Of a stretch of DNA of 64,000 nucleotides, positions 4,837-6,242 are shown in pieces (position 1 is the stretch's first letter; each line of letters opens with the position of its first letter). The stretch lies in sequence record OL615012; one strand, given 5' to 3'. Under the pieces are notes generated by a model that saw only the letters and a list, made by a program, of their open reading frames with translations, was not told where the DNA came from and ran no database searches. The DNA comes from Shigella phage vB_SboM_Phaginator. Position numbers and translations under genes: made by a program.

Positions 4837-4912
4837 TGGTCGAGGCAGTAGGGATCGAACCTACGACCTAGGACTTAGAAGGTCCTTGCTCTTCCTTCTG
4901 AGCTATGCCTCG
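4837..4912 (-). tRNA. tRNA-Arg (anticodon UCU)
   Basis: Cloverleaf on reverse complement: D-arm GCUCAGAAGGAAGAGC, anticodon loop CUUCUAA, T-arm GGUUCGAUCC, encoded CCA. Confidence 0.85.
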
Positions 4913-4916
4913 TATT

Positions 4917-4991
4917 TGGCGGACGTGATAGGATTCGAACCTATAACCAATCGCTTAACAGGCGATCGCTCTGCCATTGAGCTACACATCC
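4917..4991 (-). tRNA. tRNA-Asn (anticodon GUU)
   Basis: Reverse complement GGAUGUGUAGCUCAAUGG...; anticodon loop CUGUUAA; T-arm GGUUCGAAUCC; encoded CCA. Confidence 0.8.
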
Positions 4992-4995
4992 AAAT

Positions 4996-5082
4996 TGGTG
5001 GGGAGTGATGGAGTCGAACCACCCGAGTCGCAATGACAATGGATTTACAGTCCACACCGCTACCTCTACGGGATAACTCCCC
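4996..5082 (-). tRNA. tRNA-Tyr (anticodon GUA), long variable arm
   Basis: 87 nt; anticodon loop CUGUAAA; long variable arm; T-arm GGUUCGACUCC; encoded CCA. Confidence 0.75.
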
Positions 5083-5094
5083 TAATTCATAATT

Positions 5095-5169
5095 TGGTGG
5101 CCCTGGGTGGAATTGAACCACCATCTGGCGATTATGAGTCGCTTGCTTGAACCTTCCAGCTACAGGGCC
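5095..5169 (-). tRNA. tRNA with anticodon CAU (Ile as in T4, or Met)
   Basis: Anticodon loop CUCAUAA; T-arm GGUUCAAUUCC; encoded CCA; Ile assignment by analogy with T4 tRNA-Ile. Confidence 0.7.
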
Positions 5170-5170
5170 T

Positions 5171-5246
5171 TGGTGCTGATTGACGGAATCGAACCGCCGA
5201 CCTTCTCATTACAAGTGAGTTGCTCTACCTACTGAGCTAAATCAGC
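5171..5246 (-). tRNA. tRNA-Thr (anticodon UGU)
   Basis: D-arm GCUCAGUAGGUAGAGC; anticodon loop CUUGUAA; T-arm GGUUCGAUUCC; encoded CCA. Confidence 0.85.
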
Positions 5247-5251
5247 AAAAC

Positions 5252-5341
5252 TGGCGGAGGCGATAGGATTTGAACCTATGAGTCGCCGGAGCGACTGCCG
5301 GTTTTCAAGACCGGTGCATTAAACCACTCTGCCACGCCTCC
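5252..5341 (-). tRNA. tRNA-Ser (anticodon UGA), long variable arm
   Basis: 90 nt; GGAGGCGUGGCAGAGUGG...; anticodon loop CUUGAAA; long variable arm; T-arm GGUUCAAAUCC; CCA. Confidence 0.85.
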
Positions 5342-5347
5342 AAATAT

Positions 5348-5956
5348 TTATATATTGTTAATTTGATTTAGAATTCTTTTTGCTTGAGTATGACTTACGC
5401 CAATATGCTTAGCATATTTAGACAATTCGCCACGTTTAGAAAAATCATATAATTTAGAAATTTCTATTCTTCTTTTTCTTTCATCCGCAGAAACTTTTGC
5501 TTCGTTTGCTTTTGCTATTTTACGTTTAGCTTCTTGAGAATGAGTTTTACCAGCAAAGCCATTCTTCATTAATCCATTTGAAGACCATCCTTTTAATTTT
5601 CCGTTAGAATGTGCCTTTTTAACACCCAATGAAATTAATTCGCGTTGCTGATCTGTCATAGGATAATTATTTATATGATCCCATCCACCTTCACCTCCAA
5701 GTTTTAAATTATACACATCTGGTCTATTTAAAAACTCTTCTGTGACAATATTTTTCTCGGCTTCAAGCATAGATTCTTTATCGTCAAAATACTCTAATAT
5801 TTCTTTAGAAAAATTTTCTATACCATATTTATCTTGGGCTCTTTTTAATAATTTACCAGAACCCATATATCCATCATCTAAATTTTCGGTAGAATGCACA
5901 CCAATATAAATTTTATTATTAATTTTATTTGTTATTTTATAAAGATAAAAATGCAT
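5348..5956 (-). CDS. segB: GIY-YIG homing endonuclease, SegB-like, embedded in tRNA operon
   Basis: GIY-YIG motifs (FYLYKI...KIYIGVHS, YMGSG); track ORF 5348..5998, preferred ATG at 5956 preceded by AGGGA. Confidence 0.8.
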   Translation of the reverse strand: MHFYLYKITNKINNKIYIGVHSTENLDDGYMGSGKLLKRAQDKYGIENFSKEILEYFDDKESMLEAEKNIVTEEFLNRPDVYNLKLGGEGGWDHINNYPMTDQQRELISLGVKKAHSNGKLKGWSSNGLMKNGFAGKTHSQEAKRKIAKANEAKVSADERKRRIEISKLYDFSKRGELSKYAKHIGVSHTQAKRILNQINNI

Positions 5957-6002
5957 ATCAGTCCCTAATAAAGAACTGAGCGTCTCACGACGAGTCATAA
6001 AT

Positions 6003-6076
6003 TGGAGCGGATAATGAGAATCGAACTCACATCATCAGATTGGAAGTCTGAGGTAATACCATTATACGATATCCGC
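6003..6076 (-). tRNA. tRNA-Gly (anticodon UCC)
   Basis: Reverse complement GCGGAUAUCGUAUAAUGGUAUUACCUCAGACUUCCAAUCUGAUGAUGUGAGUUCGAUUCUCAUUAUCCGCUCCA matches T4 tRNA-Gly as recalled. Confidence 0.9.
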
Positions 6077-6081
6077 AAATT

Positions 6082-6170
6082 TGGTGCGAGAAGTGGGACT
6101 CGAACCCACAAGGAAATCATTCCGCAGCATTTTAAGTGCTGTGCCTTTACCAATTTGACCATTCTCGCGC
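6082..6170 (-). tRNA. tRNA-Leu (anticodon UAA)
   Basis: 89 nt; anticodon loop CUUAAAA; long variable arm; T-arm GGUUCGAGUCC; CCA. Confidence 0.9.
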
Positions 6171-6242
6171 TGGGAATAAAGGACTCGAACCTTTGCATCC
6201 TGGAATCAAAATCCAGTGCCTTACCAACTTGGCTAATTCCCA
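6171..6242 (-). tRNA. tRNA-Gln (anticodon UUG)
   Basis: Anticodon loop UUUUGAU; T-arm GGUUCGAGUCC; directly abuts tRNA-Leu; 3' CCA not obviously encoded. Confidence 0.8.

Follow-up and report, generated by a model that had tools for sequence, protein, structure and literature searches.

A GIY-YIG endonuclease gene with a SegB-type catalytic module and an unrelated DNA-binding module takes the place of tRNA-Pro in a Tequatrovirus tRNA operon

The tRNA operons of the T-even phages T4 and T6 carry segB, a free-standing GIY-YIG homing gene that lies directly 3' of a tRNA gene. In T4, the annotated order is Gln-Leu-Gly-Pro-Ser-Thr-Ile-[segB]-Arg-rnaD-rnaC (NC_000866), and a middle promoter just 5' of the cluster drives the entire tRNA/segB transcript (PMC2330249). 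The preferred site of T4 SegB lies in tRNA-Asn (PMC2330249). T6 SegB cleaves DNA in vitro and is inactivated when Y17 and G19 are both replaced by alanine, and the breaks made by SegB amplify phage tRNA and anti-defence genes (PMC13096335). Here, we describe a related gene, called seg below, in the tRNA operon of Shigella phage vB_SboM_Phaginator (sequence record OL615012), analyzed in a stretch of 64 kb (64,000 nt; the window, whose positions serve as coordinates). The phage belongs to the Tequatrovirus group, with top matches of 97-99% to many T4-like phages of Escherichia coli. Its seg gene replaces tRNA-Pro precisely and joins a catalytic module of the SegB type to a different C-terminal half. 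We think it likely that seg encodes a SegB-group free-standing GIY-YIG homing endonuclease whose DNA-binding module has been exchanged and which homes into the Gly-Pro region of the operon.

All operon genes lie on the minus strand. ARAGORN called nine tRNA genes in the window, each confirmed by Rfam tRNA models, in the order Gln-Leu-Gly-[GIY-YIG ORF 5956-5348]-Ser-Thr-CAU-Tyr-Asn-Arg. The open reading frame (ORF) of seg encodes 202 aa, or 216 aa when extended in frame to the ATG at 5998, and is flanked by tRNA-Gly(UCC) (6076-6003) and tRNA-Ser(UGA) (5341-5252), the first base of which is 6 nt past the seg stop codon. ARAGORN, Rfam, and Pfam agreed on this placement, which an initial annotation of the sequence had proposed together with gaps of 5-6 bp on both sides of the extended frame; the gap to tRNA-Ser is indeed 6 nt, and that to tRNA-Gly is 4 nt. 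The same annotation had noted the absence of tRNA-Pro from the operon and had put the endonuclease where T4 has this gene, giving a T4 order (Gln-Leu-Gly-Pro-Ser-Thr-Ile) that NC_000866 bears out. ARAGORN and Rfam found tRNA-Pro nowhere in the 64 kb, the endonuclease frame included. The closest genome, JLBYU24, with 99.4% identity over the locus, served as a stand-in for the remaining genome; its regions beyond the span of the window contain zero tRNAs of any kind. In the alignment with T2 and T4, homology ends 5 nt past tRNA-Gly (...CTCCAATTTA) and restarts at base 1 of tRNA-Ser. Between these borders, T2 and T4 have 80 bp, consisting of the spacer and tRNA-Pro; in the window, a 655-bp cassette (41-nt leader, 609-nt ORF, and 5 nt) fills exactly the tRNA-Pro slot.

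This replacement is not confined to one phage. Among Tequatrovirus records, 448 have contiguous Gly-Pro-Ser and 54 have the 3' half of seg joined to tRNA-Ser, both counts containing GenBank/RefSeq duplicates. Every one of the 54 records covering the 3' half of this seg has it joined to tRNA-Ser, with no space for tRNA-Pro in between, and no Tequatrovirus record was seen in which this seg is followed by tRNA-Pro. The seg allele is spread over several species of the International Committee on Taxonomy of Viruses (gizh, RB18, RB51), and its C-terminal module is at least 99% identical in 52 records. In Tequatrovirus, seg and tRNA-Pro behave as alternative alleles, the signature expected of a homing endonuclease gene; more specifically, seg shows the sporadic presence at one locus and the sharp borders, here placed within a few nucleotides, of a free-standing homing gene. 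The twist is that carrying seg costs the phage a tRNA gene.

The same distribution bears on the idea that seg is an inactive relic and that tRNA-Pro was lost by an unrelated deletion, in which case the shared position would be a coincidence without functional meaning. Decayed relatives do exist, namely T2 trna.1, which retains the C-terminal module only, and truncated ORFs in EcS1 and LC53; moreover, tRNA genes of the cluster are dispensable and often lost, as in the Pro/Thr hybrid of T6 described below. However, the ORF is intact and has every invariant residue of the family, its catalytic module is virtually identical to that of a proven active enzyme, and both the near-identity of the C-terminal module in 52 records and the split of 54 seg-Ser against 448 Gly-Pro-Ser records speak against a relic. 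We regard this explanation as very improbable.

The predicted protein is modular, and we divided it and its relatives after a conserved GGEGxWxH motif. Codons 1-94 (5675..5956) encode a GIY-YIG catalytic module of the SegB type, as judged by identity, by AlphaFold, and by Pfam (PF01541, 26.8 bits against a cut-off of 22.6). These residues are 97% identical to T4 SegB and 99% identical to T6 SegB. The nucleotide identity to T4 segB is 99.3% over 275 nt (5942-5668) and then ceases; with T6, DNA homology extends to the leader too. Codons 95-202 and the stop codon (5348..5674) encode a linker, a NUMOD3 motif, and a C-terminal helix-turn-helix, and this half was assigned to phrog_16521. By BLASTP, only residues 1-117 of T4 SegB align, and the C-terminal 108 residues are about 21% identical to the C-terminus of T4/T6 SegB in global alignments (21-22%). 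A NUMOD3-type motif is common to both proteins, whereas the terminal helix-turn-helix is absent from SegB. The designation SegB-like, given by the initial annotation, is right for the catalytic half, but the DNA-binding half is unrelated and T4 segB sits in the slot between Ile and Arg. Similarly, of what would be expected of a SegB orthologue we found the catalytic domain, but neither the C-terminal region nor the slot before tRNA-Arg in place of Asn.

Twenty-five full-length homologues were aligned. The GIY-YIG motif, a NUMOD3-like block (F-G-K-x-H-S-x-E-x-K-x-K-I), and a terminal helix-turn-helix (G-V-S-H-T-Q-x-R-R) are conserved among them, and Y6, Y17, G19, E67, and N83 are invariant; the window protein thus has both residues whose joint substitution inactivates T6 SegB. 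The NUMOD3 match in Pfam is slightly below threshold (20.1 bits against a cut-off of 20.4). The AlphaFold model has a mean predicted local distance difference test (pLDDT) of 81.5, with an N-domain above 90, low-confidence linkers, and confident C-terminal helices (modelled at 141-152, 157-167, 177-185, and 189-201). The N-domain matches I-TevI's catalytic domain (1MK0/1LN0; Foldseek probability 1.00, template-modelling score 0.63-0.66), and a sequence search of the Protein Data Bank with the window protein gave no match at E ≤ 1. The predicted design resembles that of I-TevI of the T4 td intron: a catalytic domain at the N-terminus, then a flexible linker, then a putative extended region for DNA binding with a helix-turn-helix at its end. 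Unlike I-TevI, its gene is free-standing rather than intronic, and it has no zinc finger, since it contains no cysteine. With a catalytic module 99% identical to that of T6 SegB, the protein is expected to cleave DNA in a metal-dependent manner.

The DNA-binding module was found again in other T4-like phages. The seg genes of Klebsiella phages of Jiaodavirus (Mineola gp269, Lion_ER11, KP13MC5-5) and of Aeromonas phage Aes012 have the same three modules, lie directly after tRNA-Gly, and are preceded by a homologous leader. Identity of the DNA-binding module to that of the window is 83% for P0002, a protein also present in Jiaodavirus-like metagenome contigs, 59% for Mineola, and ~39% for Aes012. 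The catalytic module of Jiaodavirus is only 71-73% identical to that of the window and is homogenised within its own genus instead; indeed, the two seg types of Jiaodavirus are 98% identical in their N-termini but no more than 62% identical in their C-termini. Catalytic modules thus group according to phage genus, whereas DNA-binding modules group according to lineage, a pattern indicative of recombination between sibling genes. Phage homing endonucleases of other families are known to swap domains (PMC10448857). At the level of nucleotides, the 112 nt that encode the helix-turn-helix (5359-5470) are 91-92% identical to Klebsiella Jiaodavirus seg, and the remainder of the C-terminal module is much less alike between the Tequatrovirus and Jiaodavirus genes (whole-module protein identity 59%), suggesting that this stretch was recently exchanged between the genera or is very strongly constrained. 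Records of JLBYU24, AR1, and HY01 label the gene segD. We rejected this orthology: T4 SegD also has a GIY-YIG catalytic domain, but identity to it is 38% over residues 1-159 only and T4 segD is located between genes 23 and 24; the label is a loose annotation transfer.

Could the gene simply be segB, with the same relaxed specificity for the T-psi-C arm of tRNA genes, relocated by recombination between tRNA 3' ends, and with a C-terminus of little effect? The 97-99% identity of the catalytic domain and leader to T4/T6 SegB speaks for it, as do the left junction, CCAATTTA/TGACTCG, which is the same as that of T6, and the observation that T4 SegB at higher enzyme concentration cuts many tRNA genes (PMC2330249); all tRNAs of the operon have a core matching or nearly matching GGTTCRANTCC. 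However, it is the C-terminal domain that does the recognition in GIY-YIG enzymes of the I-TevI type (PMC2330249), and here this domain is unrelated to that of SegB and makes up a coherent lineage that prefers positions of its own. In addition, the preferred cleavage/recognition site of T4 SegB, mapped in T2L as the 27-bp sequence GGTTCGAATCCTATCACGTCCGCCAAA within tRNA-Asn, is unchanged in the window (4941-4915, minus strand), and the 86 nt made up of tRNA-Asn and its flanks do not differ from T2L (AJ880101). A SegB site left intact in the phage's own tRNA-Asn argues that the window enzyme differs from SegB in specificity, and we give the relocation of an ordinary segB little credence.

The window locus is hence predicted to be both a seg donor at the Pro slot and a recipient of T4/T6 segB at the Asn slot. 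A recombinant with both genes would have two direct repeats of ~330 bp (leader and catalytic module) flanking Ser-Thr-CAU-Tyr. We noticed no phage with both window-type seg and T4-type segB among the listed seg-bearing records, a check that was not exhaustive. The window itself has no second seg gene; the sole other tblastn match (15502-15654, E 0.18) is spurious, being antisense inside a 660-aa ORF (14692-16674) that we take to be the baseplate wedge gene gp6. The homologue of rnaC holds a perfect tRNA-like T-arm core, GGTTCGAATCC (4583-4593), the same 11-mer as in the SegB site of tRNA-Asn, and may be an additional candidate for SegB cleavage.

The positional preference of the DNA-binding module was assessed by scanning the flanks of located full-length homologues with ARAGORN. 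Homologues at 43-78% identity adjoin tRNA-Pro(UGG) in 7 of 12 contexts of other T4-like phages, the independence of these contexts being our own judgement. The arrangement is Gly-[seg]-Pro for the two seg types of Jiaodavirus and for Aes012, Pro-[seg]-Gln in another context, Pro(UGG)-[seg]-Pro(CGG) in a further one, and Pro-[seg]-Ala in Erwinia phage FBB1 and two close relatives; it is also Pro-[seg]-Ala for the more distant homologues P0055 and P0117, with tRNA-Pro 160-195 nt upstream of the ORF. By chance, adjacency to tRNA-Pro would be expected at ~0.13-0.15 per context (clusters of 12-17 tRNAs), giving a rough binomial P of ~0.001, or ~0.01 when the Pro-Ala cases are merged; this is our own estimate and ignores phylogeny. 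A protein scan of IMG/VR returned eight loci, all distant (at most 49% identity over a partial match), and the two that were checked had no flanking tRNA.

Jiaodavirus also offers a view of the allele lacking the insert. Its seg-less allele reads Gly-AATTA-Pro, and the Mineola cassette sits exactly within that 5-nt spacer; of the 199 records that match the seg-bearing query, 14 do so over at least 80% of its length. Unlike in the window, tRNA-Pro is kept just downstream of seg in Jiaodavirus and Aes012, the last 10 nt of the ORF overlapping it in Mineola and P0002-type loci. The tRNA-Pro(UGG) that follows the P0002-type cassette (L021 3100-3175, L032 1184-1259) is very unlike that of L031 (543-619), which is the allele of seg-less relatives and of Mineola. 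The divergent copy may have been transferred along with the cassette or may represent an immune target.

Several observations weigh against homing into the Gly-Pro region by means of an exchanged module. tRNA-Pro is kept beside seg in Mineola and Aes012, so that not just any tRNA-Pro gene can be the target; a target across the junction, or immunity of the copy that is kept, would be needed. The position of the gene is what places the putative target site. Five of the 12 contexts have no adjoining tRNA-Pro (two of them are truncated ORFs, T2 trna.1 among them), and some of the Pro-seg-Ala contexts may be of common ancestry. The C-terminal helices gave weak matches to solved helix-turn-helix domains (E > 1), and the 54 Tequatrovirus seg copies are nearly identical, so that selection on the ORF is not measurable from them.

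Despite these points, we still favour homing by a retargeted enzyme, which might proceed as follows. In a mixed infection, the enzyme would cut the seg-less Gly-Pro-Ser allele in or beside tRNA-Pro, most likely at the Gly-Pro junction; recombination would then repair the break from the seg-bearing genome, copying in the 655-bp cassette, and in Tequatrovirus this conversion would remove tRNA-Pro. A cut in or beside tRNA-Pro is suggested by the precedent of SegB, whose preferred site lies in the tRNA-Asn that segB replaces. Since Mineola and Aes012 keep tRNA-Pro, a target spanning the Gly/Pro junction is more probable than one wholly in tRNA-Pro.

A further possibility is that the gene is kept mainly for the benefit of the phage, its breaks driving segmental amplification of nearby tRNA or anti-defence genes against tRNA-cleaving defences, with homing being secondary. 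Amplification requires T6 SegB, whose catalytic module is 99% identical to that of the window protein, both at tRNA-Tyr in response to Septu and at other loci in response to OLD and ToxIN (PMC13096335), and the window operon contains a tRNA-Tyr. On the other hand, no amplification is visible in the window, where the locus is single-copy, and the presence/absence polymorphism and precise borders are predictions of homing, with which a benefit to the phage would be compatible in any case. We consider benefit as the main reason for its maintenance possible, though unlikely.

How seg may be expressed is suggested by its leader (5957..6002), in which a hairpin (5979-5958) pairs a Shine-Dalgarno-like AGGGA directly before the AUG (RNA fold, -14.5 kcal/mol, z -2.3). 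Homologous leaders, with substitutions that keep the hairpin pairs, stand before segB in T6 and before seg in Jiaodavirus. The hairpin masks a weak ribosome-binding site, and seg is therefore probably translated poorly. T4 segB also has a hairpin over its ribosome-binding site, a different and stronger one (-19.4 kcal/mol) that was proposed in 2008 to limit translation (PMC2330249). The true start of seg is, on the evidence of the alignments, the ATG at 5956. The 216-aa version of gene callers, starting at ATG 5998, was rejected: this codon is 4 nt past tRNA-Gly and without a ribosome-binding site, every homologue aligns from MHFYLYK, and the corresponding extension in the Jiaodavirus leader is out of frame and reaches a stop. 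We also dismissed the leader as a remnant of the 5' half of tRNA-Pro, with which it has in common an 8-mer (GCTCAGTT) only; a shuffle test gave p ~0.05 before correction for 12 comparisons.

As to transcription, a T4-type middle promoter was located by pattern match 5' of tRNA-Gln, with a MotA box ATTTGCTTTA at 6339-6330 and a -10 element TATTAT at 6316-6311 (minus strand). Downstream of the MotA box, the sequence is identical to that upstream of tRNA-Gln in T4, and the function of 6311..6339 as a middle promoter is presumed by analogy with T4. From this promoter, seg would be co-transcribed with the tRNAs, and excision of the flanking tRNA-Gly and tRNA-Ser by processing would leave the seg mRNA, as judged from T4 (PMC2330249).

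The remaining operon genes were placed by ARAGORN and Rfam as well. tRNA-Gln(UUG) (6242-6169) and tRNA-Leu(UAA) (6168-6082) form with tRNA-Gly a block (6003..6242) that is 97% identical to T4, and tRNA-Ser is 99% identical to that of T2. They are followed by tRNA-Thr(UGU) (5246-5171), tRNA-CAU (5169-5095), tRNA-Tyr(GUA) (5082-4996), tRNA-Asn(GUU) (4991-4917), and tRNA-Arg(UCU) (4912-4837), and the block from CAU to Arg is 98.2% identical to T2. tRNA-Tyr is barely above the Rfam threshold (30.2 versus 29), yet it is called by ARAGORN and lies inside this T2-like block. The tRNA-CAU is the T2-type allele of the T4 tRNA-Ile gene, with a sequence identical to that of T2. Of the two CAU alleles at this position (5095-5169), the window has the T2 type and T4 has the T6 type; they have a common acceptor 5' strand and anticodon loop, and different anticodon and T stems. 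Their annotation varies among records between Ile (lysidine-modified) and Met. Beyond tRNA-Arg lie homologues of the T4 stable RNAs, those of rnaD/species 2 (4835-4716, 102/119 identical positions) and rnaC/species 1 (4709-4571, 136/139), and a hairpin with a T run resembling an intrinsic terminator marks the operon end (4520-4497).

Aligned with reference clusters, the window operon is a mosaic. The order in RB51 is the same as in the window, and that in RB18 is the same with an additional His; T2 and T2L have Gln-Leu-Gly-Pro-Ser-[trna.1]-CAU-Tyr-Asn-Arg, and T6 has Gln-Leu-Gly-(Pro/Thr hybrid)-CAU-Tyr-[segB]-Arg. Met(CAU), Tyr, and Asn tRNAs of T2L were published in 2008 (PMC2330249). The initial annotation had noted, correctly, that the arrangement and tRNA set differ from those of T4, with Tyr and Asn, both absent from T4, between the CAU tRNA and Arg, and had taken this as endonuclease-driven remodelling and a different codon-supplementation repertoire. 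The latter is true as a description of the tRNA set. Remodelling is borne out at the Pro slot by the 54 and 448 records, but not for Tyr and Asn, whose presence is the ordinary T2-like state common to T2, T2L, RB51, and RB18; it is T4 that lacks Tyr and Asn, and T6 that lacks Asn, because their own segB fills that slot. In other words, the endonuclease gene lies between Gly and Ser in the window, Ile and Arg in T4, and Tyr and Arg in T6, and the tRNA replaced is Pro in the window, Tyr and Asn in T4, and Asn in T6.

The reference clusters hold traces of recombination and decay of their own. The T6 gene annotated as tRNA-Thr (AP018814, 2643-2717; compare 5171-5246 of the window) is a hybrid, with the first 16 nt from tRNA-Pro and the remainder from tRNA-Thr, joined in the common D-arm sequence TAGCTCAGT with deletion of the Pro 3' part, Ser, and the Thr 5' part. 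Its acceptor stem is unpaired and ARAGORN makes no call; it looks like the scar of a recombination between tRNA genes. In T2 and T2L, trna.1 (T2 2309-2710; 133 aa, annotated as of unknown function) starts with MNGYWWK and has most of the GIY-YIG domain missing. Its C-terminal helix-turn-helix is 41% identical to that of the window protein and its slot is that of tRNA-Thr in T4; trna.1 appears to be a decayed seg keeping only the C-terminal module.

Just downstream of the operon, two minus-strand ORFs (3289-3855 and 3973-4446) begin with MKTYAEFLTEA and MKSYAQFLNEA, which in our view resemble the N-terminal sequence by which T4 internal head proteins are targeted to the capsid. Terminator-like direct repeats of 39 nt (3930-3968 and 4484-4522, 92% identical) flank the second ORF, as if a cassette had been inserted after the terminator of the operon; a flanking repeat is also noted in the annotation of RB51.

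The arrangement and the protein described here are already public, and a subset of the T-even phages has this tRNA set and gene order as its ordinary state. RB51 ORF142 (ACP31058, annotated as a truncated SegB-like protein) is identical in protein sequence to that of the window; the locus of RB18 segB (AXF42446) is ~99% identical in nucleotides, and its annotators had already noted a divergent C-terminus. RB18 and several others have, before tRNA-Arg, an additional tRNA-His and a small ORF. In RB51, RB18, and about 50 further Tequatrovirus records, the seg arrangement shows no substantive difference from the window. We found no publication that analyzes this form of seg, the exchange of its module, or its link with tRNA-Pro; the 2026 paper on SegB covers neither tRNA-Pro nor DNA-binding domains.

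In conclusion, we tentatively propose, as a possibility that we hold at somewhat less than even chances, that SegB-type endonucleases are built of exchangeable modules, that the niche into which each DNA-binding module homes is a tRNA gene of its own, and that competing siblings, not codon demand, decide which tRNAs a T-even phage carries. If so, the T4/T6 module would claim tRNA-Asn and the helix-turn-helix module the Gly/Pro(UGG) junction in at least three T4-like genera, the same module type would survive in decayed form as T2 trna.1 in the tRNA-Thr slot of T4, and continual homogenisation among the siblings of a genus would keep their leaders and catalytic modules alike. In this locus, a catalytic domain that is otherwise the same has naturally received another DNA-binding module, and with it come a different slot and the loss of a different tRNA, which makes T6 SegB and the window enzyme a ready-made pair for studying how GIY-YIG homing endonucleases are retargeted. 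In phages with this variant, which are without tRNA-Pro and keep tRNA-Tyr and tRNA-Asn, the breaks and the amplification may fall on another part of the cluster.

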